Shown: positions 7,193-55,837 of the stretch, in pieces | How the letters are laid out: each line of letters begins with the position of its first letter | Position numbering within the stretch: position 1 is the stretch's first letter | Assembly: GCA_046726375.1 (NCBI GenBank) | Contig: JBKPAJ010000007.1 | Location: 6,488 to 70,487 of the forward strand | Direction of reading: 5' to 3' | DNA: 64,000 bases | DNA from: Acidobacteriota bacterium | GTDB lineage: Bacteria; Acidobacteriota; Vicinamibacteria; Vicinamibacterales; UBA2999 | Notes under the pieces: generated by a model | What the model saw: only the letters and a program-made list of their open reading frames with translations | Told to the model about the DNA's origin: nothing | Databases searched by the model: none | Program-made: the position numbers and the translations under genes

Positions 7193-7675
7193 AACAGGGA
7201 GATCGGGGAGATCAGGGAGATCGGGATAACAGGGAGGTCGGAGAGATCGGGGAGAAAATCCTTCTTCCTGATCGCTCTGTCCTCCCTGTCCATCAACTCC
7301 CTGATCTCCCCGGTCTCCCTGTTCATTTGATCGGGGGGAGGGGATCACAGGGAGGTCGGAGAGATCGGGGAGAAAATTCTTGTCCCTGATCGCTCTGTCC
7401 TCCCTGTCCATCAACTCCCTGATCTCCCCGGTCTCCCTGATCATTTGATCGGGGGAGGGGATCATAGGGAGATTGGGGAGATCGAGGAGAAAATTCTTGT
7501 CCCTGATCTCTCCGTCCTCCCTGTCCATCAACTCCCTGATCTCCCCGGTCTCCCTGTTCATTGATCGAAAAGAATTCTCGAGCTCGCTGATCTCCTTGAT
7601 CTCCCTGTTATTTACCTCCTTGATCTCCCTGTTATGTTTATCACCCTGAGCGGGCCTGTTATCTCCCTCCCCGGA
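7193..7675. repeat. GGGAGATC-word repeat block: about three tandem units of 117-118 bp, each self-complementary
   Basis: Units start at about 7229, 7347 and 7464 (ACAGGGAGGTCGGAGAGATCGGGGAGAAAAT ... CCTGATCGCTCTGTCCTCCCTG ... CTCCCTGATCTCCCCGGTCTCCCTG). AGGGAGATC and GATCTCCCT words alternate. Confidence 0.9.
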
Positions 7676-7741
7676 CTCCTTAACTGGCATTCCAGAAATG
7701 CTTTCGGTACAATCGCGAATGGTCCCAGGAGGATGGTTGTC

Positions 7742-8119
7742 ATGAAGCGCACGTTCGCTGTCCTGCTCGCCGCCGGCGTGATTGTGCTCGGGTCGGGTGC
7801 GACCTTCGCCCATCACTCGTTCTCGGCGACGTACTTCGAGGACAAAGAGCAGACGATCGAAGGGGAGATGGTGCAGTTCATGTACCGCAACCCGCACTCG
7901 TTTGTGCACGTCATGGACAAGGAGAATGTCCGCTGGGCGATCGAGTGGGGCGGCGGCGGGCAGTTGAGCCGGCAAGGCGTGACGCGCGAAACGTTGAAGT
8001 ACGGCGACCACGTGATCATCACGGGTGCGCCGGCTCGCAATCCCGACGATCACCGCCTGCGCATGAAAACGATTTTCCGCCCGAAGGATGGCTGGAAGTG
8101 GGGCGGCGTCGTCGAATAA
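7742..8119 (+). CDS. small secreted protein, mature N-terminus His-His (unknown family)
   Basis: AGGAGG at 7727-7732, then ATG 7742. Signal peptide MKRTFAVLLAAGVIVLGSGATFA, then HHSFSATYFED... I cannot verify a DUF assignment. Confidence 0.7.
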   Translation: MKRTFAVLLAAGVIVLGSGATFAHHSFSATYFEDKEQTIEGEMVQFMYRNPHSFVHVMDKENVRWAIEWGGGGQLSRQGVTRETLKYGDHVIITGAPARNPDDHRLRMKTIFRPKDGWKWGGVVE

Positions 8120-10292
8120 CGCCGCAAGCGTTAGAGTAATTCTTCTTCTCGTCTGGCTGATCGCAAGCGGAGCTGTGTACGCACAGCCCACCGCCGGTTC
8201 CTTCATCGTCAAGGTTGCCGATCAAACCGACGCGGCGCTGCCTGGCGTCGACGTCGAACTGCAGATTGAGGGACAGCCGCCGCGAACCGGCGTGACCAAT
8301 CCTCAAGGTGAGTTTGCGTTTACGAACCTTCCGCCCGGTCGCGCCGAGCTCGTTTGCAAACTGATCAACTTTGCCACGGTGCGCCGCGACGTGGCCGTCA
8401 CGCCCGGGCCGATGGCACGCATCACCGTCGTGATGCACCTGTCGCTCAACGCCGACGTCATCGTGACCGGGCAAAGCACCTTCCGCAACATCGCCGATCT
8501 CGACAACCCGGCAGAAAATCTCGTGGGAGTTGAATCTGCGGCAAGCCAGGGCGCAATCACGGCCAGACAGCTCGAAGCGCGACCCATCATGCGGCCGGGC
8601 GAGGTCCTCGAGACCGTCCCGGGCCTGATCGTCAGTCAGCACAGCGGGGAGGGAAAGCAAATCAGTATTACCTCCGCGGCTTCAATCTCGATCACGGGAT
8701 CGACTTCGCGACGACGATCGCAGGCACGCCGATCAATATGCCGTCGCATGGGCATTTTCACGGCTATTCGGATACGAATTCGTTGATACCCGAGCTCGTG
8801 AGCGGCGTGCAATTCAAGAAGGGCCCGTATTTCGCGGAGACGGCGATTTCTCCGCCGCCGGATCCGCGAACATCAACTACGTCAATCAGCTCGCACGGCC
8901 GATCGTGAATCTCAGCGCGGGCGCTGAGGAATGGGGTCGCGTCTTTGCCGCTGCATCGCCGCGCGTGAGCAACGGGTTCTTGCTGGGCGCGATCGAGCTC
9001 AATCACAACGACGGGCCGTGGAATCGGCCGGACGATTACCGCAAAGCGAACGGCCTGCTGCGTTATACGCAAGGCGATGCGCGCAAACGGGGACGGGGCG
9101 GCGATCGTTACGAACCTCTGCGTACCTCATTGGCTACGGCCTCAATCTCTTTTCGAACTTCACCTATTTCCTGGACGATCCGGTCAACGGCGATCAGTTC
9201 GAGCAGGCGGACCGTCGGCTCACGTCGGGCGGCCGTATCACTTACAAGATGCTCGGGCGCGTGAACGGCCGCAACGTGGAAAGCCCCTTTGGTGCGCAGG
9301 TGCGTCACGACGGCATCGGCACCATCGGGCTCTACAAGACGATCAAGCGGCAGCGCCTCGCCACGACACGCGACGACGCCGTGGACCAGACAGCGCTGGC
9401 CATGTTCGGTCAGAGCGAAATCGAGTGGAGCTCGCGTCTCAGGATGACGGCTGGTCTTCGCGCCGATCTCTACCGCTTCGACGTGACGGCGAGCGACCCG
9501 GTGAATTCGGGGCGCGATGTCGAGGGTCTGGTCAGTCCGAAGTTCGGCATGGTGCTCGGGCCCTGGGCCAGCACCGAGTTTTACCTGAACGCCGGCTTTG
9601 GATTTCACAGCAACGACGCACGCGGCGCGACGATCACGCGCGACCCGCTCACCGGTGAACCTGCCGCGCGGGTGACGCCGCTGGCGCGCGCGCGCGGAGC
9701 GGAAGTGGGTTTCCGCACGGTGCGATTGCGCGGCCTGCAAACGACGCTGTCGTTGTGGCGGCTCGATCTCGACTCGGAGTTGCTGTACGTGGGCGACATC
9801 GGAACGACAACCGCGACGCCGCCAACCTCGCGTTACGGCGTCGAGTTGGCGAACTATGCGCGTCTGAATAGATGGCTCACGCTCGATGCCGACATCTCGT
9901 TTTCACGCGCGCGCTTCACCGGCGGCGAAGTGGAAGGAGGTTATGCGCCCGGCGCGGTGGATCGCGTAATTTCCGCTGGGATCACCGCTGAACCGGTCCA
10001 TCGTTGGTTCGGCAGCATGCGCCTGCGGCACTTTGGTCCACGTGCGCTCGTGGAAGACGGCAGCGTGCGATCGGACCAGACCACGATCGTGAACGGCGAA
10101 GTCGGACTTCGGCTCTGGCCGCGGGCGCGGGTGACGGTGGAAGGGTTCAACCTGTTCGACGCGAAGGTGAGCGACATCGATTATTTCTACACGTCGCGAT
10201 TGCCCGGTGAGCCGGCCGAAGGCGTGGACGACATTCACACGCACCCGGCCCTGCCGCGTACGGCGAGAGTGGCGTTGCAGCTGACGTTTTGA
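8088..10292 (+). pseudogene. TonB-dependent receptor (CarboxypepD_reg N-domain + plug + barrel) disrupted by at least three frame changes
   Basis: Track pieces 8088-8786, 8905-9264 and 8931-10292, plus an unlisted frame segment, read as one receptor: ...GEVLETVPGLIVSQHSGEGK | ANQYYLRGFNLDHGIDFATTIAGTPINMPSHGHFHGYSD...KKGPYFAE | GDFSAAGSANINYVNQLARPIVNLSAGAEEW...LLRYTQGDAR | AYLIGYGLNLFSNFTYFLDDPVNGDQFEQ ... RVALQLTF. Frame changes lie near 8655-8658, 8840-8842 and within 9085-9122. Confidence 0.75.
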
Positions 10293-10302
10293 CGGCAGAA
10301 CT

Positions 10303-10395
10303 CTTCCAAGTCGTTCCTTGAGTTCAAAGTTCAAAGTTATTGGCAAAGTGTGTGAGTTAACTTTGAACTTGGAACTTGGAACTTGTAACTTTCGG
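10303..10395. repeat. GTTCAAAGTTC / GAACTTGGAAC word hairpin at a convergent gene junction
   Basis: Left arm cttccaagtcgttccttgagttcaaagttcaaagtt. Right arm aactttgaacttggaacttggaacttgtaac. The right arm overlaps the last codons of the MFS gene. Confidence 0.8.
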
Positions 10396-11712
10396 ATCCA
10401 TTGTCCAGCGCAGCGAGAACATCACGATTGCAGAGATCGCCGCGGGAACGGCGGCGGAATAAAACAGATCCTGCATCGACCATTGACGGCGAATGAGTTC
10501 GCCGGCGAGCACGGGGCCGACGATCGCGCCAAGGCGGCCGATGCCCAGGCCCCATCCGATGCCCGTCGATCGCAAGTAAGTGGGATAAAACGTGCCCGCC
10601 AGCGCGTTTACCGTCGGCTGACTTCCGACCACGCAGGATCCCGCGATAAAGACCACGACATACAACACCGCGAGCGCGATGCCTGGCTGTCCGATCGCGG
10701 CAATCGTGATCGCCGCAACCGCAAACGCCGTCGTGAGCACAGGAATGAATCCGAGGCGCCCGATCAACCACGCCAGCCAGAACGTGCCGAGCGTCCCGCC
10801 CACCTGCAGAGTCGTTCCGACGAGCACCGCCGTGGACGTTGGATATCCCAGCCCGCGGACGACAGTGGGCAGCCAGTTCGAGAGGAAGTACAGGTTATAA
10901 AGATTCATGAAGCAGACGATCCACAGAAGGATCGTGCCGGCCGCGCGCCCTTCACGAAACAGATGCACCACCGGCACGCCGCCGCGATTTTCTTCATGTA
11001 CGAGGAATTTCGTGTCAGGTCCAACTGACACTGTTGGATCGATACGCTGCAACCACTTTTCAACGCCGCGGCGATTCCGACTGCGCAGCACGAGGAATTG
11101 GAGCGACTCCGGCAGCCACACCCACATCAAGAGGGCAATCACCAGCGGCACAGCGCCACCGAAGTAAAACACCGAACGCCAGCCGAAATTCGGAATCAAC
11201 CATGCCGCGATGAACCCGCCGATCGCGGCGCCGGCGGTAAAGCCCACGGAGATTGTCGCCATGAGCGACACGCGCGAGCGCTTCGGACTGTATTCCCCGA
11301 TCAGTGCCGTTGCATTCGGGATGATCGATCCCAATCCGATGCCCGCGATGAATCGCACGATCAGCAGTTGCTGCACGTTGCTGGCTTGCGCCGTCACCAG
11401 CGTCATCAGCGAAAAGAACAGCGTCGCGCCAATCAGAATCGGGCGGCGTCCCAACTTGTCGCCGAGCATCGTGAACACGAGCGAGCCCACGAGCACGCCG
11501 AAGTTGCCGGCGCCGAAGACCGGACCGAGCGCTGCTTGCGGAATTCCCCACTCCTGGATGATGGCGGGCGCGGTGTATCCCACGGCCTGCACGTCGAAGC
11601 CGTCCATGATCAGACAGAGCGCGCACAGCACGAACAGCCCGATCTGCAGCGTTCCGATCCGGCTTCGGTCAACGATGTCGGCGATATTCAGCGTCGGCAC
11701 GGCGCACACCAT
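10357..11712 (-). CDS. MFS transporter, aromatic acid:H+ symporter-like
   Basis: Last 451 aa of track ORF 10357..12537, from ATG 11712. Twelve-TM pattern with LMDGFDVQAVGYTAPAI, GDKLGRRP and similar motifs, resembling the 4-hydroxybenzoate/gentisate transporter subfamily. Confidence 0.8.
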   Translation of the reverse strand: MVCAVPTLNIADIVDRSRIGTLQIGLFVLCALCLIMDGFDVQAVGYTAPAIIQEWGIPQAALGPVFGAGNFGVLVGSLVFTMLGDKLGRRPILIGATLFFSLMTLVTAQASNVQQLLIVRFIAGIGLGSIIPNATALIGEYSPKRSRVSLMATISVGFTAGAAIGGFIAAWLIPNFGWRSVFYFGGAVPLVIALLMWVWLPESLQFLVLRSRNRRGVEKWLQRIDPTVSVGPDTKFLVHEENRGGVPVVHLFREGRAAGTILLWIVCFMNLYNLYFLSNWLPTVVRGLGYPTSTAVLVGTTLQVGGTLGTFWLAWLIGRLGFIPVLTTAFAVAAITIAAIGQPGIALAVLYVVVFIAGSCVVGSQPTVNALAGTFYPTYLRSTGIGWGLGIGRLGAIVGPVLAGELIRRQWSMQDLFYSAAVPAAISAIVMFSLRWTMDPKVTSSKFQVQS

Positions 11713-11823
11713 AGCACGTGAGACGCTCCACTGTGCGATATCAGTGTTGACATCAGCCGGGCGCGGGAATAACGTAGCCGGGCCACTTGTCTGAACAACG
11801 TCGACCCCGCTTAGGAGGGTTTG

Positions 11824-14800
11824 ATGAGGCGCATCCTGAAGGTCCTGTCCCTGACAATTTCTCTGTGGGTCTTCGCGACCGGCGCGGCGTGGGCGCAGGC
11901 GACTGCGCAAATCAGCGGGGTGGTGCGAGATCAACAGGGTGGTGTGCTGCCGGGCGCTGATGTCACGGCCACGCAAACCGACACCGGCGCAAAACGCAGC
12001 GCCATGACCGACGTCGCAGGGTTCTACACCTTGCCCAACCTGCCCGTCGGCCCCTATCGGATTGACGTCACGCTGCAGGGATTCAAAGCCTTCTCGCAAA
12101 CCGGCATCGTCTTGCAGGTCAACGCCAGCCCGGTAATCAACGTGTCTCTGTCGATCGGCGAGCTGGCCGAAACCGTGTCGGTGCAGGGCGAATCGCCGCT
12201 GGTCGACACCTCGCGCGCCGGCATCGGGGAAGTGATTGAGAACGCGCGCATCATGGAGTTGCCACTCAACGGGCGCAACCCCACCGACTTGATCGAGCTG
12301 GCGGGCGCCGCGGTGAACGTGCCGGGGCAGGGCGCCTCCACCCGCAGCTTTCAGGGAAGCTCCGGCGGGCAGGGCATTTCCGTCGCCGGGGGCCAGACGT
12401 TCGGCACCGCGTACGTGCTCGACGGCGCGATGCACAACAACCCGTACGACAACTTGAATCTGCCGCTGCCGTTCCCCGATGCGTTGCAGGAGTTCCGCGT
12501 CGAAACCGGCGCCAGCGCCGCATCGAACGGCGTGCACTCGGGCGCATCGGTGAGCGCCGTCACCAAATCAGGGACCAACGTGTTCCACGGCGACGTCTTT
12601 GAGTTCTGGCGCAATCACGAGTTCAATGCCACCAACCCCTTCGCGCTCACCGGGCCCGACGGAAAACGCCGCGATGACGGCCTCAATCGTCATCAGTTCG
12701 GCGGCGTCATCGGCGGACCGCTCGTCAAGAACAGGTTGCATTTCTTCGCCGGCTATCAGGGAACGAAGATCGACCAGACGCCGACCGACAACATTGCCTT
12801 TGTGCCGACACCGGCGATGCTCAACGGAGATTTCTCGGCCATCACCTCGCCGGCATGCAATGCCGGACGTCAGATCACGTTGAACGCCCCCTTTGCGGGC
12901 AACCGGATCGATCCCGCGCGCTTCAGCCCTGCGGCGCTCAACCTCGCGCGTCGCTTGCCCTCGACAACCGATCCATGCGGACGCGTCGTGTTTGGCACTG
13001 CCGCCAATCGCGACGAAGGGCAGGTGGTGACGCGCGTCGACTATCAGTGGAAGCACAATCACACGATCTTTGGACGCTACATCGGCACCTCGTACAACAC
13101 TCCGCCGGCGCTGTCGATTACGCCGGACAATCTGTTGACGTCGCCCTTCGGTGGGTTCGACAACTTCGGTCACACGCTGACGGTGGGCGAGACGTGGGTG
13201 GTGAACTCGACGATGGTCAACTCCGTGCGATTCGCGTGGAACAACACCGATGTGCATCGCTATCACGAGGGCTACTTCAACGCCAACGATCTCGGCATCA
13301 ATATGTACAGCTACCTGGACGACTACTTCATCGCGAGCATCACGGGTGGCTTCAACGTCGGGAGCGGCGTCAACAACGAGGCGCGGTTCAAGACCACCAC
13401 GTATCAATTCAGCGATGACTTGACCTGGATCAGGGGCTCGCATCAAATCGGCTTCGGGATCAACGCCGCGCGCTGGGATTCCCTCTCGCTGGCGCACGTG
13501 CGCTCGCCCGGCACGTTCAACTTCAACGGCAACGTGACCGGTCTCGGCCTTGCGGACTTCCTGGTTGGAGTCTCGAGCCAGTTCCTGCAGGCGGCGCCGA
13601 ATACGCTCGACATGTATCAGTACTATTTCGCGCTGTACGGCGCCGACACCTGGCGCGTGAGCCCCAAGCTGACGCTGAACTACGGCTTGCGATGGGAGCC
13701 GTTCCTGCCGCAGCAGATTCCGAACGGCTACATCTATAATTTCGATCTCGATCGCTTCCGCCAGGGCGTCCACAGTCAGGTGTTCCCGCTCGCGCCGGCC
13801 GGATTCGTGTATCCCGGCGATCCTGAATTCGTGGGCGGTTATTCCGGGATGAACAAGCGGTGGACCAACTTCGCGCCCCGCGTCGCCGCGGCCTTTGATC
13901 CGAGCGGCGACGGTCGCACGACAATTCGCGCGGGCTACTCGCTCGGCTACGACTTCGTCAACGGCCAATATCACTTGAACACGTCGGTCGCGCCGCCGTG
14001 GGGCGCCGAGGTGCGGTTGACAAACGTGCCGCTCGATAGTCCGTTTGCCACGTTCCCGGGCGGCAATCCGTTTCCACGCGTCTTCAGCACGTCAACCACG
14101 TTCCCTGCGTTCGGGTCCTTTCTCGCCGTCGATCCGGATACCGACAACACGCGCCAGCACTCGTGGAACCTCGTGTATCAGCGCCAGCTTGGCAGCAACA
14201 TGCTGGTGTCGGCGAGCTACATCGGCAGCCACACGTCGAACCTGTGGAACATGAAAGCGCTCAATCCGGGCGTGTTCCTCGGCACCGGCCCGTGCACGCT
14301 GCCGCTCGCGACCCCGCCCAATCAGGCCGTCTGCTCGACCGACGCGAACTTGAACGCGCGCCGCGCGTTGAGCCTCGAGAACCCGAGCGAAGCACGTTTC
14401 ATCGGTCACCTCGATCAACACGATCCGAGCGGCCGCGCCAACTACAACGGCCTGCTCCTTTCCTTTTCGCGGCGTCAGGTGCGCGGTATCGGCTACAGCG
14501 GCAACTACACGCTGTCGAAATGCGACAGCCACCCGACGCAGTCGCTGCCGAACGTCGGCACCGGCTGGGCCGATCCGAACAATCCGGATTACGACTACGG
14601 CCCATGTGAGTCGGATCGGCGTCATATCGTGAACGCAACCGTTGGCTACGATCTGCCCGAGTTCTCCAACGCCGCGCTGCGGGCGATCGCATCCGATTGG
14701 CGCGTAAACGGCATTTTCCGCGCGCAGTCGGGTGGGCCGCTTACGATCACGTCCGGTCTCGATCGCTCGATGACGGGGGTCACCACCAATCAGCGGGCGG

Positions 14801-15171: not shown

Positions 15172-15180
15172 GGTCGGGCA

Positions 15181-16047: not shown

Positions 16048-16049
16048 CC

Positions 16050-46003: not shown

Positions 46004-46010
46004 GTGGTCT

Positions 46011-48077: not shown

Positions 48078-48122
48078 AGGCTCAGCCCGCGTCAGCCTAC
48101 TATAATTTGGGCCGCCATTCAG

Positions 48123-49163
48123 ATGCATCCCGACCTGCAGGAGGCGATCGACTTCCATATCGCCGTCCTGGCCGAAGGCAGTAAAGCACTCGTCGGTTAC
48201 GACACGGCCAAAGCGATCGCCAACGTCGTGCTGCTCTCCGAGATTCCGACGACTTACGACAAACGCGATGAGCGTCAGGTGAACGCCGGCAATCTGCTGC
48301 TGCGCGGCGTCCCTGGCGTCGGCAAGACCTTTTTCGGCGTGATTCTCGCCGCCATCAGCGACGCGAAGTTCGCCCGCCTGCAGGGCCGGGCCGACCTCCA
48401 GCCGACGGAAGTCGTCGGCTTCCAGATGATTAATCCCGCCACTGGCGAGCTCGTCACGGAGTTCGGGCCGTTGGCCTCGGCCGAAGTGATCCTGCTCGAC
48501 GAGATCAATCGCATTCCGCTCAAGTCGCAGAGCGCGTTTCTCGAAGGGTTGCAGGATCGAACCGTCACTGTCGGCTCGACGACCTACGATTTGCCGGCAT
48601 TCAGCTTTGCGATTGCCACGATGAATCCCGTCGAGCTCGGCCAGGGCACGTTTCCGCTCTCCGAAGCCGCAACCGATCGGTTTGCGGCAATCGTGAACAT
48701 CGGCTACCTGCCGGCCGAGGAAGAAGAAAAGCTCGTCGCCTTCGATTTCAAGCGAGTTCGCCTCAAACCGCTGCTGGCCAAGCAGCGCATCATTCAGCTA
48801 CGCGGCGCGATCTCCGAGCACGTATTTCTTCACGAGCGACTCGGCCGCTATATTCAGCGGCTCGTCGCGGCGACGCGTCCCTACAATCCTGAGACCGACT
48901 GGAACCAGCACTCGCCATCGGCGCTGGTTGAACGCGGCGTCGATCTCGGCGCCTCCCCGCGCGCGATCATCGTGTGGAGCCGGTTGGCAAAAGTATGGGC
49001 CTTGCTCCAGCATCGGCGCGCCGAGGTGTACCCGGAAGATATTCAGGATCTCGCGCCGTTCGTGCTGAGTCACCGGATCTGGCTGGGACCGCATGCGGCA
49101 AGTCACGGGTTGACGACGGAAGCGGTGATCCGTGATGTGATCGACGAGGTGGCGATACCGTGA
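48123..49163 (+). CDS. moxR: MoxR-type AAA+ ATPase
   Basis: From ATG 48123. LLRGVPGVGKT (Walker A), VILLDEINR (Walker B), ATMNPVE, SPRA. Confidence 0.9.
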   Translation: MHPDLQEAIDFHIAVLAEGSKALVGYDTAKAIANVVLLSEIPTTYDKRDERQVNAGNLLLRGVPGVGKTFFGVILAAISDAKFARLQGRADLQPTEVVGFQMINPATGELVTEFGPLASAEVILLDEINRIPLKSQSAFLEGLQDRTVTVGSTTYDLPAFSFAIATMNPVELGQGTFPLSEAATDRFAAIVNIGYLPAEEEEKLVAFDFKRVRLKPLLAKQRIIQLRGAISEHVFLHERLGRYIQRLVAATRPYNPETDWNQHSPSALVERGVDLGASPRAIIVWSRLAKVWALLQHRRAEVYPEDIQDLAPFVLSHRIWLGPHAASHGLTTEAVIRDVIDEVAIP

Positions 49164-49173
49164 ATACGCGCGA

Positions 49174-49275
49174 GAATTCAAAATGGGAAATGCAAAATGC
49201 CAAAAGACTCAAAGCATAGGCGCACCATGGCGCGTTCGTTTGTTTTGAATGTTGCATTTGTCATTTTGCATTGCG
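49174..49275. repeat. AT-rich word inverted repeats straddling the next gene start
   Basis: aatgcaaaatg (49189-49199, contains ATG 49197) pairs with cattttgcatt (49262-49272). ttcaaaa (49177-49183) pairs with ttttgaa (49243-49249). Confidence 0.6.
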
Positions 49276-50384
49276 TTGCTGCGAGCTCGGCTGCGCAGCC
49301 GGCGCGCGAGCAGGAGATTGATCCTCTCCGCTGCTGGTGGCGGACATCCGAAGGCGCCATTACCGTCGGCCAGCCATTTTCGGCGACGCTGACGTGCGCC
49401 GTGCTTGACACAGCGAACGTCCGCGTTGTCCCCGATGAAACGCAGCTGGCAGCCGAGACGATTCAGCTGGCGCCTTTCGAGCTGATTGGCGGTGATCATC
49501 CCGCGGAGCTGAGGAGCGGCGTGCGGCGGTTCTTCCAATACGAGTACCGGCTGCGCCTCATCGATCCGGCGGCGATTGGCAAGGATGTGCCGCTACCGCG
49601 GCTCGTCATCCACTATCGCGTCGAAAGCCGCGTACAGTCGCAGGCGTCCGAAGGACGCGATCTGACGTACGTGATGCCGCTTGTCGCCGTGCGCGTGATG
49701 TCGCTCGTTCCGACGGATGCCTCCGACATCCGCGACGCGTCACACGAACCGTTCGGGGCGATTGAGGCGTTGCGCTTTCGCGCGCGTATGCTCGAGATCG
49801 CGGCGCTGACGCTTGGCATTCTCGGCGGCGTGATTCTCGCCGCCGCGATCGTGCGCGCGTTAGTCGCGCCGCGCCGCCGCACAACGGGCGCCGTCGTGCG
49901 GCTGTCGGATGGCGCGATCTTGCGCGCGGTGGCGTCGGAACTGGCCGCGGTGCAGAGCGAAAGCCGCGGCGGGTGGAATCCGTCGCTGCTGAATCGCGCG
50001 CTTGCCGCCTTGCGCGTGGCCGCCGCCTACGCGCTCGGGCGGCACGTGCCGCATCGCACTCTTGCGGCTGGCGCCGAAACGCCCGAAGGCCGCTTCGTTG
50101 TCGCGCGCGGCCTGATTAGAAAGCGCCGATCCACCGTGACGAGCCCGATTACAGCTGCCGACGTCAAACGTGAGCTCGATCAATTACCGCTGACGGCGTC
50201 TCACGAGCGCCGCACACGCCTCGAAACGCTGCACACGTCGCTGCAGACGCTGACGCACGCGCAGTACTCGGCCAAGCCGGCAGAACCCGCGGACGAGGCT
50301 GTGACATCGGCGCTGCAGGTCGTCCATCAGCTGCGTCGCGAACGCCGCTGGTTTACCTGGCTGACGCCGTCGCCATCCCGATGA
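49197..50384 (+). CDS. membrane-anchored hypothetical protein (weakly BatD-like), occupies the slot where DUF58 normally follows MoxR
   Basis: Signal peptide (the start could be ATG 49227, MARSFVLNVAFVILHCVAASSAAQ), beta-rich periplasmic part, one TM (IAALTLGILGGVILAAAIV), helical cytoplasmic tail. ATGA overlap with the next gene. Confidence 0.6.
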   Translation: MPKDSKHRRTMARSFVLNVAFVILHCVAASSAAQPAREQEIDPLRCWWRTSEGAITVGQPFSATLTCAVLDTANVRVVPDETQLAAETIQLAPFELIGGDHPAELRSGVRRFFQYEYRLRLIDPAAIGKDVPLPRLVIHYRVESRVQSQASEGRDLTYVMPLVAVRVMSLVPTDASDIRDASHEPFGAIEALRFRARMLEIAALTLGILGGVILAAAIVRALVAPRRRTTGAVVRLSDGAILRAVASELAAVQSESRGGWNPSLLNRALAALRVAAAYALGRHVPHRTLAAGAETPEGRFVVARGLIRKRRSTVTSPITAADVKRELDQLPLTASHERRTRLETLHTSLQTLTHAQYSAKPAEPADEAVTSALQVVHQLRRERRWFTWLTPSPSR

Positions 50385-51481
50385 CCTTCATCGCGCGACT
50401 CGAGCAGCTGCTGCGGCAACAGGCGGCAGACTGGGATAACGTGAGCATCGCCGCGCTGCGTTACTGGCACCGCGATGAAGCGCGTCTCTTCCTCACGGCA
50501 GTCATTGGCACGCTCCTGTTGCTCCTGACCATCCGCCTGTTGCTGTCGCGCCGGCGCGGTCGCGGGGCCGGCCTACCCGCGCTCCTGCGGCAATCGGAGT
50601 CGCCTCGGCTTGCGTGGCTTCGTCACCTCCCGCTGGGGCTGTTTGTCGCCGGTCTGCCGTTTGCGCTCCTGGCGATTGCCGATCCGTACGCGGCGCTTGT
50701 ACAGGAGGACACCACGTTTCCCGGACGTCGCATCAGTCTAATGATCGACGCGTCCACCAGCATGTCCACGTCGTTCAAGACCGACACGCTCAAGACGCGC
50801 TCTCCGAACGGACCCGCCTTCTACACCACGGTCGCTGCGGCCGAACAGTTCGTGCAGTTGCGCCGCAAGGGCCGCCACCAGGACTTGATTGCGCTCGTCG
50901 AGTTCGGCAACCAGGCGTACGTGATCACGCCGTTCACCAACGACTACGACAACATTCTGTTGAGCATCAATCTGATCAGCGATCCGGTGGAGTTCTCGCT
51001 CTTTCCCGATCGCGGGACGATCATCGCGCACGCCGTGGAGCAGAGCATCGGGTTGTTCAAGGCGTTTGATTTTCTGGAGGCCTCCGGCAACCTCATGGTG
51101 ATCTTCACCGACGGTGAAGACACGCGTGCGGAGTTTCAGGGCGTCAGCCTCGACGAGATCCTTCAGAGCGCGGTGGACAACAGGATTCCGTTGTACTTCG
51201 TGCGGACCAACTACGACAAGGCGCTCGGCGACATCATCCCCGACGCGCTCTGGAAAAACGCGGTCGAAAAAACCGGCGGCAAGTTCTATGCGGCAAGCGA
51301 CGAGGCGAGCTTGATGCGCGCGATTCGCGACATCGACCGGCTGGCCGCGGGCACGATCCGCGTCAAGCGGTACGCGACGCAGAAAGCGGAGTTCGCGCCC
51401 TTCGCGCTGATTGCGGCCGCGTTCTGGTGCGGTGCGGCCGGTCTCAAACTGTCGAGCGGCAGATTTCAGACGCTGCCGTAG
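50381..51481 (+). CDS. VWA domain membrane protein (BatA-like)
   Basis: N-terminal TMs, then RRISLMIDASTSMS (MIDAS DxSxS) ... VIFTDGEDT, and a C-terminal TM. Confidence 0.8.
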   Translation: MTFIARLEQLLRQQAADWDNVSIAALRYWHRDEARLFLTAVIGTLLLLLTIRLLLSRRRGRGAGLPALLRQSESPRLAWLRHLPLGLFVAGLPFALLAIADPYAALVQEDTTFPGRRISLMIDASTSMSTSFKTDTLKTRSPNGPAFYTTVAAAEQFVQLRRKGRHQDLIALVEFGNQAYVITPFTNDYDNILLSINLISDPVEFSLFPDRGTIIAHAVEQSIGLFKAFDFLEASGNLMVIFTDGEDTRAEFQGVSLDEILQSAVDNRIPLYFVRTNYDKALGDIIPDALWKNAVEKTGGKFYAASDEASLMRAIRDIDRLAAGTIRVKRYATQKAEFAPFALIAAAFWCGAAGLKLSSGRFQTLP

Positions 51482-52215
51482 AGATAACAGGGAGATCAGC
51501 GAGATCAGGGAGAGCGATAACAGGGAGATCAGGGAGATCAGGGAGCGATAACAGGGAGATCAGGGAGATCAGGGAGATCAGCGAGATCGGGAGAAATAAC
51601 AGGGAGATCAGGGAGGTCAGGGAGAAATATCAGGGAGAAGTAACAGGGAGATCGGGGAGATCAAGGAGCGATAACAGGGAGATCAGGGAGATCAGGGAGA
51701 TCAGCGAGATCGGGAGAAATAACAGGGAGATCAGGGAGGTCAGGGAGAAATATCAGGGAGAAATAACAGGGAGATCGGGGAGATCAGGGAGCGCGCGATA
51801 AGAGGGAGACCAGGGAGATCAGGGAGATCAGCGAGATCGGGAGAAATAACAGGGACATCAGGGAGATCAGGGAGAAATATCAGGGAGAGCAGGGAGAGCA
51901 GGGAGAGCAGGGGAAGATCAGGGCGGAACAATCGGGAGATCGGGGACACCGAGGAGAGATAACAGGTAGGTCGGGTAGATCGCGAGTGATGAGAAGAACT
52001 GTTTTGTTCTCCCTGATCTCCCTGATCTCCCTGTTTTTCTCCCTGGTCTCCCTGATCTCCCTGTTAATTCTCCCTGGTCTCCCTGATCTCCCTGTTAATT
52101 CTCCCGGATCTCCCTGATCTCCCTCCCGGATCTCCCTGATCTCCCTGTTAAATTCTCCCGGATCTCCCTGATCTCCCTGTTAATTCTCCATGATCTCCCT
52201 GATCTCCTTGTGAAC
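51482..52215. repeat. about 0.73-kb GGGAGATC-word element: long G-rich left arm with ~124-bp tandem units, C-rich complementary right arm
   Basis: Left arm ~51482-51990 carries dozens of AGGGAGATC-type words; the unit gcgataacagggagatcagggagatcagggagatcagcgagatcggg... repeats at ~51545 and ~51669. The centre has agaac-tgtttt-gttct near 51995. The right arm ~52005-52215 is GATCTCCCT words. Confidence 0.9.
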
Positions 52216-52231
52216 TTACGAGGATAAATCG

Positions 52232-52861
52232 ATGAAACAACTGACGATTGGCGTGATGGTCGCCCTGGTGTTCTTTGCTGCGTCGGCCTTTGCCTTCAGA
52301 GAGGCGCGGCGCCTGCGCGCAGACGCGGACGGACGCGAGCGCCTGGCCACGCTTCGCCATGTCGGATTGGACAACGCAAAATCCGAATACTGGCGCGGTG
52401 AGTACGACCGCGTCATTTCTGTATCTGCGCCCGCGGATCGCGATCCGGATCTGGAGCGGCTGTTGCTCTCCGCCAACGCCGCGTTCCGAAAGACGCAACG
52501 CGAGGCGCCACCGCGTCAGGCGCAGCTGCAGCAGCTCGATGCGGTACTGCAGTCCTACGCGTCGGTGTTGAAATCGGGACCATTTGTTGCTGACGCCGCT
52601 TACAACTACGAGTTTGTCGCGCGGGTGCGGGAGGCGATCAGCCGCGGGAAACCGCCGGCCTCGTCGGCGGCGCGAGCATCGGGGCCATCCGAGCCGCGTG
52701 CCGTCGATCTTCCGGCCGGACCGACGATCCACGGCCGTCCGGGCGGACCACCGCCGGGCACGAAGGGCGAGGAGTTCGAGGTCATCGCGCCGATGGAGTT
52801 TGGGGATCGTGAGGCGCAGCCTGAACCCAACGCCGGAGGCAAGCCGCTGCGCAAGGGCTGA
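52232..52861 (+). CDS. membrane-anchored hypothetical protein
   Basis: 209 aa. N-terminal TM (IGVMVALVFFAASAFAF), helical middle, Pro/Gly-rich tail. Confidence 0.6.
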   Translation: MKQLTIGVMVALVFFAASAFAFREARRLRADADGRERLATLRHVGLDNAKSEYWRGEYDRVISVSAPADRDPDLERLLLSANAAFRKTQREAPPRQAQLQQLDAVLQSYASVLKSGPFVADAAYNYEFVARVREAISRGKPPASSAARASGPSEPRAVDLPAGPTIHGRPGGPPPGTKGEEFEVIAPMEFGDREAQPEPNAGGKPLRKG

Positions 52862-52866
52862 CGATC

Positions 52867-53955
52867 GTGGTCTTTCGAGAGCCCGACTACCTGTGGTTCG
52901 TGATCGTGCCGCTGCTGCTGGTCGTGCTGTGCGTCTGGCGGTTCGTGCAGCGGCGGCGTGACGTTCGACAGTTGGTCTCGCGGCGCATTGTGCCCTCGCG
53001 ACAGCGCTTCGGCTTCGTTGGCGACCTGCCATTCTGGTTGGCCATTGCCGTCGCCAGTGCGCTATTGATCATCGCGGTCGCTAGACCCGCCGCGCCGACG
53101 AACACATTACGCCGCGCCGGTGTCGACGTCGTCATTCTGCAGGACGCGTCGGCCTCCATGCGCGTGAGCGACGTCGCCGGCGCGCAGGATCGCTGGAGCC
53201 GATCGATGCGGTTTCTGCGCGGTCTCGGCGATGCCTTGAGCTGGCGCGAGGACCGCATTGCCCTGGCGGCTTTCGCGCACATCGCGGCGCCGCAGGTGCG
53301 TCTTACGCGCGATCCGAACACGCTGTTTTTCTTTCTGGATCATCTGGAGCACCAGGCGCCGTTTCGGCTCGAAGACGCGACCACGTGGGACACCAATCTG
53401 GAGCTCGGCGTGTATTGGGGCTTGCGCCTGATCGACAAGGACGAAGAGATTCATGGCCGATCGCCAAACGCCAAGCTGTTCGTGCTGTTGTCGGATGGCG
53501 AGGCATGGAGCGGGGAAGTGGCGAAGTCTGTGGAGCTGGCGAGGGACCGCAGTATCCCTGTGTTCGTGATCGGTGTCGGATCGCTGAGCGGCGGGCGTAT
53601 GCCGGTGGTGCCCGAGCTCGACCAGGAGACCCCGCCCGACGAACGCCCGCCGCTGGTGTCGCGCCTCGATCGGCCGGCGCTGCAGCGGATTGCGTCGGCC
53701 GGTGGCGGCCGCTACTTCGAGCTCGATCGCGTGCCCGATCGCGATATCGCCAACGCCATCGTGGATACGGGGCGCCGCCTCGCGCCCGCCCTCGGGTCGG
53801 TGGAGGTGCACACCGATCTTTACTGGTGGGTCTTGTGCGCCGCCGGTATCGCAGCGGCTGCAGGGTTGCTGTTTATCCGCGAGGCGGCGGCACTCGCTTT
53901 TCTCCTCGCCGGCGCCGGCGCTGCCGCCCTCGTCCTGCAGCGCGCGCTCTGGTAG
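52867..53955 (+). CDS. VWA domain membrane protein (BatB-like)
   Basis: N-terminal TMs, VVILQDASASMRVSD (MIDAS), VLLSDGEAW, C-terminal TMs. Confidence 0.8.
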   Translation: MVFREPDYLWFVIVPLLLVVLCVWRFVQRRRDVRQLVSRRIVPSRQRFGFVGDLPFWLAIAVASALLIIAVARPAAPTNTLRRAGVDVVILQDASASMRVSDVAGAQDRWSRSMRFLRGLGDALSWREDRIALAAFAHIAAPQVRLTRDPNTLFFFLDHLEHQAPFRLEDATTWDTNLELGVYWGLRLIDKDEEIHGRSPNAKLFVLLSDGEAWSGEVAKSVELARDRSIPVFVIGVGSLSGGRMPVVPELDQETPPDERPPLVSRLDRPALQRIASAGGGRYFELDRVPDRDIANAIVDTGRRLAPALGSVEVHTDLYWWVLCAAGIAAAAGLLFIREAAALAFLLAGAGAAALVLQRALW

Positions 53956-54024
53956 CGTCGCCTTCCGGGCGAGCAGTAACGGGGTATTCTTATCGGTCAT
54001 CCAAAGGAAAGCGGAGGTGCGGAC

Positions 54025-54687
54025 ATGAGTTTGAAGATAGGCGACGTTGCGCCGGATTTCGAGGCCGACACAACCGAGGGTCGAATCCGGTTCCACGAAT
54101 GGATCGGCGACGCGTGGGCGGTTTTGTTCTCGCACCCGAAGGATTTCACGCCGGTGTGCACGACCGAGCTGGGATACATGGCGAAGCTCAAGCCTGAATT
54201 CGAGAAGCGCGGGGTCAAGGTCATCGGGTTGAGTGTCGATCCGGTCGACAACCACTCGCGCTGGGCCAACGACATCAAAGAAACCCAGGGGTTTGCGCCC
54301 AACTACCCGATGATTGGCGACACCGAACTCGAGGTGTCGAAGCTGTATGGCATGTTGCCTGCGGATCTCGAGGGAACCTGCGACGGCCGAACGCCGGCCG
54401 ACAATGCCACGGTCCGCACGGTGTTCGTGGTCGGTCCCGACAAGAAGATCAAGCTGCACTTTGCGTATCCGATGACGACCGGGCGGAACTTCGACGAGGT
54501 GCTGCGCGTGATCGACTCGATGCAGTTGACGGCCAAGCACAAAGTGGCGACGCCGGTGAACTGGAAGCAGGGTGAGGATGTGATCATCGCGGGCTCGGTT
54601 TCGGATGACGAGGCAAAGAAGACGTATCCGGAGGGTTGGAAGTCGCCGAAGCCGTATTTGCGGATCGTGCCGCAGCCGCGGGGATAG
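54025..54687 (+). CDS. 1-Cys peroxiredoxin (Prx6 type)
   Basis: GDVAPDFEADTTEGRIRFHEWIGDAWAVLFSHPKDFTPVCTTELG is the canonical peroxidatic Cys context. Confidence 0.9.
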   Translation: MSLKIGDVAPDFEADTTEGRIRFHEWIGDAWAVLFSHPKDFTPVCTTELGYMAKLKPEFEKRGVKVIGLSVDPVDNHSRWANDIKETQGFAPNYPMIGDTELEVSKLYGMLPADLEGTCDGRTPADNATVRTVFVVGPDKKIKLHFAYPMTTGRNFDEVLRVIDSMQLTAKHKVATPVNWKQGEDVIIAGSVSDDEAKKTYPEGWKSPKPYLRIVPQPRG

Positions 54688-54782
54688 GTACGAGTTCTAG
54701 GTTCCTAGGTTCCCAAGTTCATAGGTTCTGGAGCGTCGGAACCATGGAACTTCGGAACCTGGGAACTTCGAAACCTCGAAAC
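54688..54782. repeat. GTTCC(T/C)A(G/A)GTTC-word hairpin filling a convergent junction
   Basis: Left arm gttctaggttcctaggttcccaagttcataggttctgg, loop agcgtcgg, right arm aaccatggaacttcggaacctgggaacttcgaaacctcgaaac. Confidence 0.8.
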
Positions 54783-54790
54783 GCGCTGGC

Positions 54791-55363
54791 TCATCGAGGC
54801 GGATGGCGCCGCAGCAGCGTCTCGGCAAGGCGGCCGAGCGTTCGTGCGGCCTGTCGGCGTGCATCTCCACGGCGTTCGCTACGCTGCGTCTCGCGAGGCG
54901 TCTCAGGCGCGCGATCGTCGTCGCGCGCAATCGTATCGGTGACGCGCCTCGCAAACATGAAGCGCGTGGCCCAATACTCTTCATTCAAGTGGTCGCGGCG
55001 CACGCGCCCATGCCGCTTGCTGGCGTTGACCATCACGCCGCTGCCTTCATAGATGCCGACGTGGGTGACGAACGACCGGCGCGTGTCCGATGAAAAAAAT
55101 ACGAGATCGCCGCGCTGCAGCCGGCGGCCCGTGGGATCGCCGACGTCCGACTGGTTGACAGCCCGGCGCGGCAGATCGATGCCGAACTCGCCGAACACGT
55201 ACTGAGTCAGGCCGGAGCAATCAAAGGAGGTCGGACCTTCGGCGCCCCACACGTAGGGACGTCCGATCAGGCTCGCCGCCAAATCGACAACGTCAGACGC
55301 CGACACGGGAGTGGTGAAGAGAAGGAAAGACAGCAGCAGCGGGCATGCGATTCTCGAGAACAT
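54791..55363 (-). CDS. secreted NlpC/P60 family cell-wall peptidase
   Basis: From ATG 55363: signal peptide, then GRPYVWGAEGPTSFDCSGLTQYVF ... FVTHVGIY (Cys/His catalytic contexts). Confidence 0.85.
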   Translation of the reverse strand: MFSRIACPLLLSFLLFTTPVSASDVVDLAASLIGRPYVWGAEGPTSFDCSGLTQYVFGEFGIDLPRRAVNQSDVGDPTGRRLQRGDLVFFSSDTRRSFVTHVGIYEGSGVMVNASKRHGRVRRDHLNEEYWATRFMFARRVTDTIARDDDRAPETPRETQRSERRGDARRQAARTLGRLAETLLRRHPPR

Positions 55364-55709
55364 GGTCGCTCCGTTCGTCTGGAGCGGCAGGCATGGCGGA
55401 GGATGCGCGGCTGAGGCGCACGCAAGTTGAGCGCCAACATCGTCAACGTGGTTTACGGCGACGATTGCTGCAACGGCGGCGCGTTCGCTGACTCGAACCG
55501 TTCTCGCGCGGAGACATCCAGCGCCCACGACACCCGGCAACTGTCGCGATTCGGCGACGGTCGTCGCCGCGATTTTTTCGTGCAGCTTGCGGATAAACCG
55601 TTCCGAAACGGCTGGCTCGAACCGACCGGCGCAAAACGCATCGCGCCACTATCTGTCCGTGAGCTGTCTCACTAGGTTACCGGCCCACTGGAGTCGCCGA
55701 TTGCGAACG

Positions 55710-55837
55710 GTGAATGTTGAGATTTGGAAATCTCGAGATTTGGAGCAGATCTGGAGATGTGAAAATCTTGAGATTTGACGATCTAGAGATCTCCAAATTC
55801 TCTCCAAATCTCCACATCACCAAATCTCCATATTCAC
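55710..55837. repeat. GAGATTTGGA-word hairpin with terminal inverted repeats GTGAAT(G/A)T(T/G)GAGATTTGG
   Basis: Left end gtgaatgttgagatttggaaatctcgagatttggag. Right end ctccaaatctccacatcaccaaatctccatattcac. Confidence 0.8.

Follow-up and report, generated by a model that had tools for sequence, protein, structure and literature searches.

Word-periodic hairpins and REP-like elements in the window

The window, i.e., the whole 64-kb stretch of soil Acidobacteriota DNA analysed here, contains nine loci at which a long hairpin is built from arms of tandem 7-9 nt words. The hairpins were checked by TRF, direct reading, an ungapped inverted-repeat scan and RNA folds with z-scores. Their words belong to at least seven unrelated families in this one genome (F1 to F7), and those of F2 to F7 are without G-runs, yet the architecture is common to F1. 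The initial annotation had assigned one architecture to twelve loci; eight of them are word-periodic hairpins, to which 4568-4710 is added here, and four (17993, 20789, 25171 and 34914) are of other kinds. The loci are as follows, with the strand where one is assigned.

4568-4710: F7 hairpin, three copies of GGAAGCAC and then three of TTCCGTGA; pairing of TRF repeats
7192-7675: F1 array, CAGGGAGAT / ATCTCCCTG words; TRF and inverted-repeat scan
10303-10395: F3 hairpin, 7-nt words AGTTCAA / AACTTGG; TRF and inverted-repeat scan, z -4.1
17993-18112: cluster of four short REP-type stem-loops, GCGGACC-N4-GGTCCGC type
20789-20950: REPIN-like pair of inverted GTAG-tagged REPs (20789-20812 and 20926-20949)
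25171-25251: three small GC-rich stem-loops, z -2.5
26016-26222: F2 hairpin, 8-nt words GATGTGGC / ACATCGCC; z -8.8
34914-34938, plus strand: single-arm tandem of AAGTTCA, 2.7 copies; TRF, z +0.9
45786-46003: F2 hairpin, GATGTGGC words; inverted-repeat scan, z -5.4
49174-49275: F6 hairpin, 7-nt words AATGCAA / TTTTGCA; direct reading
51482-52215: F1 array, CAGGGAGAT words; TRF, fold of -406 kcal/mol, z -19
54688-54782: F4 hairpin, 8-nt words GGTTCCTA / TCGGAACC; z -6.3
55710-55837: F5 hairpin, 8-nt words GAGATTTG / TCTCCAAA; inverted-repeat scan, z -6.5

The long inverted repeats of the 64 kb are almost solely these hairpin loci. Run over the whole window, the stringent inverted-repeat scan gave seven clusters, six of which are word-hairpin loci, while twenty block-wise dinucleotide shuffles, used as a control, gave zero to three weak clusters. 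The arm identity was 0.74-0.75 in register, as compared with 0.52-0.58 after one arm was shifted by one word (0.74 versus 0.57 in the mirror register of 26016-26222). Words of up to 13 nt had been proposed, but the units found are of 7-9 nt, and those of 11-13 nt consist either of two units or of one unit with punctuation.

The F1 array at 7192-7675 consists of three 118-nt hairpins in tandem, the first with a fold of -108 kcal/mol (z -13), plus surplus C-arm words. In the second F1 array, at 51482-52215, a G arm of about 45 nine-nt units (51483-51990), with higher-order periods of 31 nt and 123 nt, is followed by a short centre and a C arm of about 20 units (52005-52211). This G arm is about 2.5 times as long as the C arm; much of it cannot pair, which looks like a runaway expansion, not a tuned structure. 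The F2 hairpin at 26016-26222 has arms of about 95 nt with 76% complementarity, and the other F2 hairpin, at 45786-46003, carries the REP-tag-like GGGTCGCGCTACATC in its centre. The F7 hairpin folds at -88.9 kcal/mol (z -5.8), and its centre holds nested GC-rich REP-like hairpins. The F6 hairpin was seen in the sequence with a weak energy (z -1.6), and the minus-strand fold is the more stable for F5.

In the cluster at 17993-18112, which is not word-periodic, a GTAG tag is clear on the minus strand of one stem-loop, by the REP definition of PMC3733652. The two REPs of 20789-20950, located between genes 20022-20777 and 20951-22432, flank tandem 18-nt (GGGCTACATNTGTGTCNT) and 27-nt repeats, and the element folds at -75 kcal/mol on the plus and -56 kcal/mol on the minus strand. 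The stem-loops at 25171-25251, downstream of gene 23564-25156, are not word-periodic and are REP-like at best. What had been taken for a word-hairpin family, GCGGACC/GCGCTACA, reads on the other strand as an ordinary GTAG-tagged REP (TGTAGCGCGGCCC-TTCA-GGTCCGC), while the link that GCGCTACA was said to make between families is real (45881, 18036 and 20805). The repeat at 34914-34938, within the first codons of gene 34902-35366, had also been listed among the hairpins; it is not one, because the inverted partner is absent.

Placement at gene ends, polarity and folding

The hairpins start 0-18 nt past the upstream stop codon, or 25 nt past it for F5 at 55710-55837, on the minus strand downstream of a pirin gene (-). 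In the window, hairpins are present at five of the six convergent junctions, at none of the six divergent ones and at four of about 16 co-directional ones. The convergent spacers are taken up by F2 between a GntR gene (+, stop 26006) and a cytochrome c'-like gene (-, stop 26225), by the F2 hairpin of 45786-46003 between a GNAT gene (+) and a PQQ dehydrogenase gene (-), and by F4 between a peroxiredoxin gene (+) and an NlpC/P60 gene (-). The F3 and F7 hairpins are likewise at convergent junctions, the former between genes for a TonB-dependent receptor (+) and an MFS transporter (-).

Translation showed that three hairpins enter coding sequence. The right arm codes for the last 11 aa of the MFS gene in F3, for the last ~12 aa of the PepSY_TM gene 4673-6166(-) in F7, and for the signal peptide of gene 49227-50384 in F6, which lies inside a MoxR-DUF58-VWA operon and has the start codon (49227) in its centre. 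The F1 array of 7192-7675 begins 1 nt past the stop of gene 6702-7190(+), with the next gene start at about 7733-7743, and that of 51482-52215 opens at the base after the VWA gene stop, with the next gene start at 52232. The earlier description of placement after stops or at convergent junctions, with some entry into coding sequence, was thus confirmed. The hairpins at 49.2k and 51.5k lie within or between genes that are closely packed in relatives.

The more purine-rich arm was the 5' arm in 52 of 57 hairpins (25 of 30 outside F1), and the polarity of F1 was uniform, at 20 to 0. By hand tally, about 15 of 20 co-directional cases had the more stable RNA fold on the sense strand, and the sense-strand G-U excess was weak (78 versus 61 pairs). 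No U-tract was detected after the stems, with a T fraction of 0.22 in the 12 nt downstream, and canonical terminator matches were at chance level.

Dispersal and turnover among relatives

The word families were found across the genome and across species, and therefore, they are not confined to the window; the design proposed in the initial annotation, one architecture with several word families at gene ends, holds on that scale. Each word family is a multi-copy element that was copied between loci. The F1 hairpins of G arm and C arm occur on many contigs of at least five Acidobacteriota species, with no other taxon among the matches listed. Copies with a downstream C-arm partner were, among the matches listed, from Acidobacteriota MAGs only, i.e., JBKPDL (at least 12 loci), CAVRUW (at least 14), CAVYVZ (at least 6), CAVYZT (at least 3) and JBOGIV (at least 5). 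The basic form of F1, 55-70 nt long, is tCA-(CAGGGAGAT)3, a short A/T-rich loop and (ATCTCCCTG)3-TGa, and the ends of this three-word form are identical in about 20 copies. The two F2 loci are paralogues with 80% mean column identity over ~215 nt and the same order of word variants. Copies of F3 (L069) and F5 (L068 and L069) were found in sister-species loci without other similarity to the window. The window is probably of Vicinamibacterales origin, and its closest relatives are MAGs labelled Vicinamibacterales or just Acidobacteriota; in more distant ones the architecture is alike and the words are different, mostly without G-runs (e.g., AATTGCT and TCAGTCG). As annotated, the window shows no evident transposase. 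RAYT-like ORFs were also missing when 1.54 Mb of fetched DNA was scanned by motif, which is a weak test, and neither a target-site duplication nor an empty/filled pair with sharp ends was found at the compared copies.

Once an element is in place, its arms grow and shrink by whole words and higher-order units, which fits replication slippage or unequal exchange. As compared with the near-identical assembly L001 (99.6% nt identity), the F2 hairpin of 45786-46003 differs by one 8-nt word, L001 holding one TGGCGATG unit more, and 11 of 12 differences over 17.2 kb from a near-identical assembly are within 115 nt of the F1 array at 7192-7675; repeat differences of this kind, from short-read assemblies, may partly be assembly error. 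In the sister species (87-91% nt identity), three families are kept at three of three junctions with very different unit numbers. An orthologous hairpin is present there for F6, and in L111 for F4, with compensated word variants. The arm length change has been very fast in the window's own lineage: the sister-species ortholog of 51482-52215 is only ~159 nt, versus 734 nt in the window, and the F1 copy number, uniform at about 2.9 in four species, spans 2.4 to 44.6 in the lineage of the window and JBKPDL. The orthologues of the VWA-stop junction mostly have a 5-20 nt spacer, and others have different word arrays or GTAG-type REPs. The array of L166 at this junction consists of tandem GGTAGGGCGGGTC units, which match the tag and 5' arm of the L189 REP GTAGGGCGGGTCC-TTTC-GGACCCGCC.

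Described repeats and possible origins

The design had been regarded as an undescribed repeat class, but it extends to many families a repeat type that was noted once, in Xanthomonas, whose paired GGGAATC repeats are the closest described analogue (Rehm et al. 2015, PMC4692102). These heptamer arrays, 70-75 per genome and paired in convergent (inverted) orientation, are alike in the tandem 7-nt words, intergenic spacers, possible stem-loop, rarity between divergent genes and variable length among related species. Xanthomonas has one word family, read via G-quadruplex, whereas at least seven unrelated families of 7-9 nt words occur per genome here, together with 31/118/123-nt higher-order units, arrays of up to 734 nt and nested REP-like inserts, in another phylum. 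Among the analogues named earlier, REP/REPIN stands, and the word hairpins resemble ERIC and RPE less than they do the Xanthomonas pairs, REP/REPIN and, in architecture alone, the foldback elements of eukaryotes. The REP/BIME/REPIN elements, too, are extragenic palindromes dispersed over gene 3' ends, often where two genes converge, and they form RNA hairpins when transcribed. They likewise comprise several families per genome, occasionally intrude into coding sequence and coexist with the word hairpins in the window (the GTAG-REPs of 17993-18112 and the REPIN-like doublet of 20789-20950). However, a REP arm is a unique stem of 6-13 bp and carries an unpaired GTAG tag, whereas the word hairpins have direct-repeat arms of 25-500 nt and no consistent tag, and REP/REPIN are mobilised by RAYT, for which the window and the weak motif scan of 1.54 Mb gave no counterpart.

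Long simple-sequence repeats with units of 5-11 nt, heptamers for the most part, are a known class according to the account of Mrazek 2007 in PMC4679880. The cyanobacterial STRR heptamers and the Beggiatoaceae TAACTGA repeats likewise consist of 7-nt words in tandem between genes, form several families per genome, have a patchy distribution over the phylogeny and are presumed to be driven by slippage. They are, however, overwhelmingly direct arrays (169 direct sets versus one indirect in 'Maribeggiatoa'; PMC4679880), whereas the word hairpins are defined by the mirror-image second arm. Intrinsic terminators share a stable stem-loop directly after the stop, which is symmetric where genes converge and whose 5' arm is rich in G and 3' arm in C, but the word hairpins have no U-tract, stems far longer than the usual 5-15 bp and some locations inside operons. 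Foldback (FB) transposons have long inverted terminal repeats in which short sub-repeats run in tandem and build higher-order periods; the whole element can snap back as a hairpin and varies in length by unequal exchange. They are eukaryotic and kilobase-scale, some copies having transposase genes, and their likeness is one of architecture only, with no homology or shared mechanism implied.

Our preferred explanation, which we consider to have an even chance of being correct, is that the hairpins are lineage-wide dispersed intergenic palindromic repeats of Acidobacteriota, similar to REP and foldback elements, grown by slippage and serving at most as 3'-end RNA hairpins. A rather doubtful alternative is that of REPIN/MITE-like non-autonomous transposons, in which the periodic arms are TIRs, recognised as ssDNA hairpins by an HUH tyrosine transposase of the RAYT or 'TIRYT' type encoded elsewhere in the genome, and slippage is secondary. 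The discrete ends and constant three-word arms of F1 in dozens of copies from four species, its uniform polarity, the paralogous F2 copies, the REP-like inserts nested in hairpin loops and the co-occurring GTAG-tagged REPs, with a REP tag inside the F2 centre, are consistent with this, and Acidobacteria are reported to have tyrosine transposases with flanking long TIRs, which form repeat families (PMC3733652). However, such a gene and target-site duplications were not seen in the searches described above, seven or more unrelated word families in one genome could be served only by several enzymes or by recognition of structure alone, and a polarity rule over unrelated families is not predicted.

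It is improbable that the hairpins are a neutral by-product, i.e., ordinary terminator or REP stems of slippage-prone genomes growing in place, one word after another, without dispersal mechanism or function and found at 3' ends only because insertions elsewhere harm. The large length changes between close relatives, the lopsided 51.5k array, the orthologous junction that is empty in many relatives or holds different words in different lineages, and the L166 array, which suggests a REP arm turned tandem, all favour such growth, as does the over-representation of heptamer-class SSRs in many bacteria (PMC4679880). Growth in place is opposed by the recurrence of word families, in an unchanged variant order, at non-orthologous loci and across species, the biased arm polarity, the hairpins kept at all three junctions between species of ~90% nt identity, and the copy number fixed at three words in four species.

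Regulation by non-B DNA or G-quadruplexes, as proposed for the Xanthomonas GGGAATC and Nostoc GGGGAYT arrays, is very improbable: the F1 G arm, with GGG every 9 nt (G3N6 repeats), fits the G4 pattern, and placement and polarity are common to the Xanthomonas repeats (PMC4692102), but AGTTCAA, AATGCAA, GATGTGGC, GGTTCCTA, AATTGCT and TCAGTCG have the same architecture without G-runs, and the complementary arm competes with G4 folding. We find it hardly credible that the words are binding-site arrays for a protein or small RNA (a nucleoid protein, CSP-like ssRNA binder or CsrA-like GGA binder), since many unrelated words occur in one genome, they are buried in duplex and the word sets vary among related lineages. 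The regular word spacing would suit such sites, as would the ACAGGGA of F1, which we take to resemble GGA-type motifs. Binding of CspB to heptamer direct repeats has been reported (PMC4679880).

In the preferred explanation of dispersed, slippage-grown palindromes, each arm is a short array in which a 7-9 nt word is repeated in tandem, and the two arms mirror each other. The mirror order of word variants may be kept by template switching between the arms and/or selection for pairing; template switching is able to generate inverted-repeat arms and to homogenise and expand them (PMC8794818, PMC13100816). Some families may have been seeded from REP-type palindromes by tandem duplication of the tag-proximal arm. 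As for the function, judged from the sequence, the hairpins would be weak terminators at most, as the U-tract is missing, and strong termination at 49.2k and 51.5k would harm because the genes are tightly spaced in relatives. The transcripts would probably fold into long stem-loops that set the 3' ends of mRNAs, protect them and may act as a barrier to exonucleases. An insert that folds back on itself would be tolerated in tight spacers, even inside operons.

Hairpin architecture and placement in the window

The initial annotation had described hairpins with arms of tandem words, and Tandem Repeats Finder (TRF) reported short-period arrays at every locus that it named. The G+C content of the window is 63%. 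By direct reading, each hairpin opens with consecutive words, passes through a short centre and closes with the words in reverse complement, and the word periods in the arms are 7, 8 or 9 nt. A sliding 160-nt MFE scan was driven by GC content and overlooked the AT-richer hairpins, and therefore it was replaced by an ungapped inverted-repeat diagonal scan of all 64 kb (arms no more than 700 nt apart, score of at least 14). Seven clusters were obtained, six of which are at loci claimed in the initial annotation, as compared with 0–3 weak clusters in each of 20 block-wise dinucleotide shuffles. A ninth hairpin, at 4568–4710, had been overlooked and was exposed by TRF pairing.

Word-periodic hairpins of the window, with word family (F1–F7) and inverted-repeat cluster at the loci claimed earlier
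4568–4710: F7
7192–7675: F1, cluster 7192–7609
10303–10395: F3 (AGTTCAA), cluster 10321–10376
26016–26222: F2, cluster 26021–26216
45786–46003: F2, cluster 45788–46002
49174–49275: F6 (AATGCAA)
51482–52215: F1, cluster 51485–52211
54688–54782: F4
55710–55837: F5, cluster 55710–55837

Folding of the loci as RNA, a check proposed in the initial annotation, placed the hairpins far below shuffled controls. The z values were -13 for the first hairpin at 7.2k, -19 for the 51.5k array, -8.8 and -5.4 for the two GATGTGGC loci (F2), and -4 to -6.5 for the 10.3k, 54.7k and 55.7k hairpins; the 49.2k hairpin was weak (-1.6 only). The mirror relation of the arms exceeds a shared word, with an in-register identity of 0.74–0.75 versus 0.52–0.58 when shifted by one word. 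Higher-order periods were found at both CAGGGAGAT loci (F1), where a 31-nt arm unit consists of three words and GATAA. At 7.2k, each 118-nt unit is a complete hairpin, and at 51.5k, TRF gave a 123-nt unit of four arm units in the G arm (the G-rich 5' arm) only. Separately, the spacer after the gene at 34902–35366 contains a AGAAGTAA tandem of 3.4 copies (35378–35403) with neither an inverted partner nor a fold (z +1.9), which is perhaps related to the hairpins as a form with one arm only.

Genes were mapped from three sources, namely a codon-usage caller, Pfam and the genes called in a near-identical public assembly. The hairpins start 0–18 nt 3' of the upstream stop codon (25 nt for 55.7k, minus strand), and in convergent spacers they leave no more than 10 nt on either side. 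They occupy five of the six confident convergent junctions, none of six divergent junctions and four of about 16 co-directional ones; the sixth convergent junction, which is hairpin-free, has no spacer at all. Gene 3' spacers have been colonised repeatedly. Three arms enter coding sequence, one of them at the signal peptide (49227) and the other two at the C-termini of the MFS and PepSY_TM genes. At 49227–49290, the right arm of the AATGCAA hairpin, which is T-rich, encodes the signal-peptide hydrophobic core MARSFVLNVAFVILHCVAA, and the equivalent in the sister-species locus L111 (reverse strand) encodes MKVRVFILHFAFLISN by our own reading of the sequence. Because the start codon lies in the centre of this hairpin, it could affect the initiation of translation at 49227. 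The gene content of 38.7–43.4 kb, 46.0–51.5 kb and 2763–3416 includes an alternative-complex-III-like operon (molybdopterin, Fer4, NrfD, ActD), a PQQ dehydrogenase, a MoxR-DUF58-VWA (Bat-like) operon, TonB-dependent receptors and an ECF sigma factor, which fits an aerobic soil Acidobacteriota.

Copies in other genomes and variation between strains

The possibility raised in the initial annotation, that the word families are local to the window, did not hold, as F1 was found in five Acidobacteriota MAGs and three families in the sister species. A census with three CAGGGAGAT-type words, counting one genome per species, gave at least 118 stretches, and the five MAGs (one labelled Vicinamibacterales) hold at least 40 of the F1 stretches on many contigs. 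Among the matches listed, a three-word C arm (the reverse-complement 3' arm) downstream of a G arm occurred only in these five MAGs, in at least 20 cases, and a C arm upstream of a G arm never occurred. The listed matches in Streptomyces and other taxa were mostly in stop-free stretches (e.g., L003 and L020), and none of those listed from non-Acidobacteriota taxa had the inverted partner of the F1 word. Most of the matches outside the Acidobacteriota look like coding repeats. The sole match of the 24-nt F1 pattern in viral contigs was a collagen-like GDQ coding repeat (L200, IMGVR_UViG_3300034128_000011), which matched by chance. We caution against counting word matches without an inverted partner.

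In four of the five species, F1 is a compact hairpin with identical ends in about 20 copies, of the form tCA-(CAGGGAGAT)3, a 6–10 nt A/T-rich loop and (ATCTCCCTG)3-TGa. Its copy number is a steady 2.9 words or so in these species, versus 2.4 to 44.6 in the window and the sister species. Some copies carry in the loop a nested palindrome of 140–190 nt that contains REP-like GC hairpins, as in the MAG MFD02840.bin.1.220.

F1 hairpins with a loop insert in MFD02840.bin.1.220
L063: 5184–5386 and 7220–7452
L077: 950–1156 and 3021–3268
L099: 267–471
L118: 4941–5159

These inserts are related to each other and contain GGCCGCAGGCCGC and CGCCGGCTTTGCCGGCG hairpins; they are a second repeat family, which seems to target the F1 arms or to be flanked by them. 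In another MAG (MFD09206.bin.2.2), G-arm word triplets recur at intervals of ~46 nt in L017 7541–7836, and the fetched stretch ends before any C arm, which looks like another mode of higher-order expansion. The arms are inverted repeats, as in MITEs, though no target-site duplication in the form of direct repeats was found beside about 20 F1 copies or two F2 copies.

The sister-species locus L111 (87–91% nt identity) is syntenic with window 46969–55520, and each of three junctions carries a hairpin of the same family in both. The unit numbers differ, the F1 array being 159 nt versus 734 nt in the window, and word variants are altered in both arms. In another 8-kb locus of the sister species, L069, F1, F5 and F3 hairpins lie in a 4-kb stretch. 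The F3 and F5 copies in L069 and L068 match those of the window by 86–91%, and beyond the hairpin copies these loci are not similar to the window. When aligned with each other, the window's two F2 loci have a mean column identity of 80% over about 215 nt with the word variants in the same order, and are therefore copies of one element. The hairpins are multi-copy, dispersed palindromes with periodic arms that expand and contract by unit.

A protein of the window is also encoded on the near-identical public assembly GCA_046729875.1, whose contigs have 99.6% nt identity to the window over 40389–51700. Exact-protein look-ups for 26225–26683(-) and 55863–56717(-) gave no record, and therefore the strain comparison covers 1–17190 and 40389–51500. 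Only 12 differences were found over 1–17190. Of these, 11 are confined to a 115-nt part of the F1 array, and short-read assembly error may have contributed to them. The F2 difference between the two assemblies is exactly one TGGCGATG unit. It is documented that inverted-repeat arms can be created, homogenised and extended when templates are switched between them (PMC8794818, PMC13100816).

Three contig ends of this short-read assembly lie inside the repeats, two in hairpin arrays and one in the single-arm tandem.

Contig ends within repeats
JBKPHN010000222.1: centre of the 26.0k hairpin (window ~26113)
JBKPHN010000162.1: AGAAGTAA tandem (~35397) and 51.5k array (~51767)

The public gene caller placed a 123-aa ORF wholly within the F1 array (L203 10486–10857; window ~7187–7558, minus strand), and the window also has a 341-aa ORF at 7187–8212(-); both are almost certainly repeat artefacts. 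Mutations between near-identical genomes concentrate in the arrays, which also break short-read assemblies and draw spurious gene calls, and because of these breaks and calls, they are probably under-represented in MAG collections.

REP-type loci and described repeat classes

Four loci listed in the initial annotation alongside the hairpins proved to be of another kind.

34914–34937: single-arm tandem repeat within a gene
17993–18112 and 20789–20950: REP-type palindromes
25171–25251: three small GC hairpins

A GTAG REP is defined as a short imperfect palindrome with a 5–13 bp stem, a 2–20 nt loop and an unpaired GTAG at one end (PMC3733652). Read on the other strand, 17993–18112 and 20789–20950 contain TGTAG-CGCGGCCC-TTCA-GGTCCGC, a GTAG tag followed by a short stem-loop. 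Further stem-loops include GCGAACC-CTTA-GGTTCGC, GCGGACC-TGAA-GGGCCGC and GCGGACC-TAAG-GGTGCGC. The motif GCGCTACA, which had been taken as an end motif, is the REP tag. It or its reverse complement TGTAGCGC lies at 18036, 20805 and 20926; the remaining three REP copies have the degenerate tags CTAG, GAAG and CTGG. The 20.8k locus consists of two inverted GTAG REPs around 18- and 27-nt tandem repeats. In a REPIN, two inverted REPs form a single long hairpin around a short spacer; at this locus the outer inverted REPs pair (-75 kcal/mol), but tandem repeats fill a spacer of about 110 nt. With a loose degenerate pattern, this REP family gave fewer matches than chance (19 versus 26), and exact heptamer counts were used instead. 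As the initial annotation had stated, no transposase was seen in the window; no RAYT (IS200/IS605-type tyrosine transposase) gene was found there, and 1.54 Mb of fetched loci scanned by motif gave no RAYT-like ORF. Tyrosine transposases with long inverted repeats on their flanks are, however, reported from Acidobacteria (PMC3733652).

The two kinds of locus have points of contact. The F2 word GATGTRGC resembles the REP tag context GATGTAGCGC, and the tag is present in the F2 centre. In 80 metagenome loci with VWA orthologues (48–75% amino-acid identity), the same architecture is built from other words, i.e., GGGTTCAAG, AGGATTGC, GGGTTCTA, GAACTYA, AATTGCT, TCAGTCG, ACACAGAG and CACAAAGAT. The junction orthologous to 51482 has a 5–20 nt spacer in most relatives, and in others it has different word arrays from the stop codon on, or GTAG-type REPs. 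In L166, the array repeats GGTAGGGCGGGTC in tandem, a unit that equals the tag and 5' arm of the REP in L189, which suggests that REP arms can turn into tandem arrays.

The nearest described case is the Xanthomonas GGGAATC repeats, paired heptamer arrays in opposite orientation with the G-rich arm beside the stop codon (PMC4692102). Nine loci of the window share this placement, polarity and inverted pairing, with tandem words in two opposed, nearby, intergenic arrays and the G-rich arm at the stop codon. The Xanthomonas repeats, however, are a single family and were read as a G-quadruplex motif, unlike the multi-family hairpins here, where GGG occurs in F1 words only and G3+ tracts are absent from F2–F7 and most words of the relatives. 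The window arrays also resemble cyanobacterial STRR and long SSR families in being intergenic, multi-copy tandems of 5–11 nt units, but the inverted partner, which is the central feature of the present hairpins, is not required in those families; both the TAACTGA repeats and the heptamers of cyanobacteria are arranged as direct arrays (PMC4679880). REPs and REPINs occupy the same niche and coexist with the hairpins in the window, but have no periodic arms. Eukaryotic foldback transposons appear to resemble the hairpins, in architecture only. An intrastrand-triplex paper (PMC4666352) does not describe this design, and we found no description of it in the literature on Acidobacteriota and nothing relevant on Vicinamibacter or Luteitalea repeats.

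Arm polarity and a possible role at transcript ends

The more purine-rich arm is the 5' arm in 52 of 57 hairpins (25 of 30 without F1). The arm order of a palindrome is the same on both strands, and therefore this polarity is not an orientation artefact; nor is it explained by common descent, because unrelated families follow the rule. By hand tally, the more stable fold is that of the sense strand in about 15 of 20 co-directional cases, and G-U pairs number 78 versus 61; these figures are no more than suggestive. Three candidates, namely a sigma-54-like motif near 7684, CRP-like TGTGA ends and GGA binding of the CsrA type, were dropped because each fits at most one family or has the wrong spacing.

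Canonical hairpin and T-run terminators were at chance level in the window (18 versus 16.8 expected; 12 versus 14.8 expected), and U-tract hairpins were not enriched at its gene ends. No U-tract follows the stems, with a T fraction of 0.22 in the 12 nt downstream (48 stems, window and relatives). Rfam 15 gave no match at gathering score on either strand of the whole window. Since a U-tract is absent and two hairpins lie within operon-like gene strings, the hairpins would be weak terminators at most. We infer that they act as RNA 3'-end hairpins, where they would form an exonuclease barrier on transcripts. Self-folding may make large inserts tolerable in tight spacers.

A broader joint reading, which we consider rather unlikely as a whole, is that hairpins with periodic arms form a prokaryotic repeat class of their own that renews itself, a counterpart in bacteria to foldback elements. 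Arm slippage and inter-arm template switching would give rise to them from REP-like seeds, and their spread would be directed by structure. The near-universal purine-arm-first order in unrelated families and in Xanthomonas would then reflect a directional role at the RNA level, with U-tract-independent 3'-end formation or avoided Rho loading as candidates, and changes in stem length would let evolution tune that role.

The multi-family picture makes the Xanthomonas "G-quadruplex repeats" one case of a wider architecture that is independent of G-runs, and the arm-polarity rule offers a simple handle on whatever reads the hairpins. In Acidobacteriota, which are abundant in soil and poorly studied, the obvious candidate for defining the 3' ends of transcripts is a repeat class that occupies the spacers at gene ends, most convergent spacers among them.
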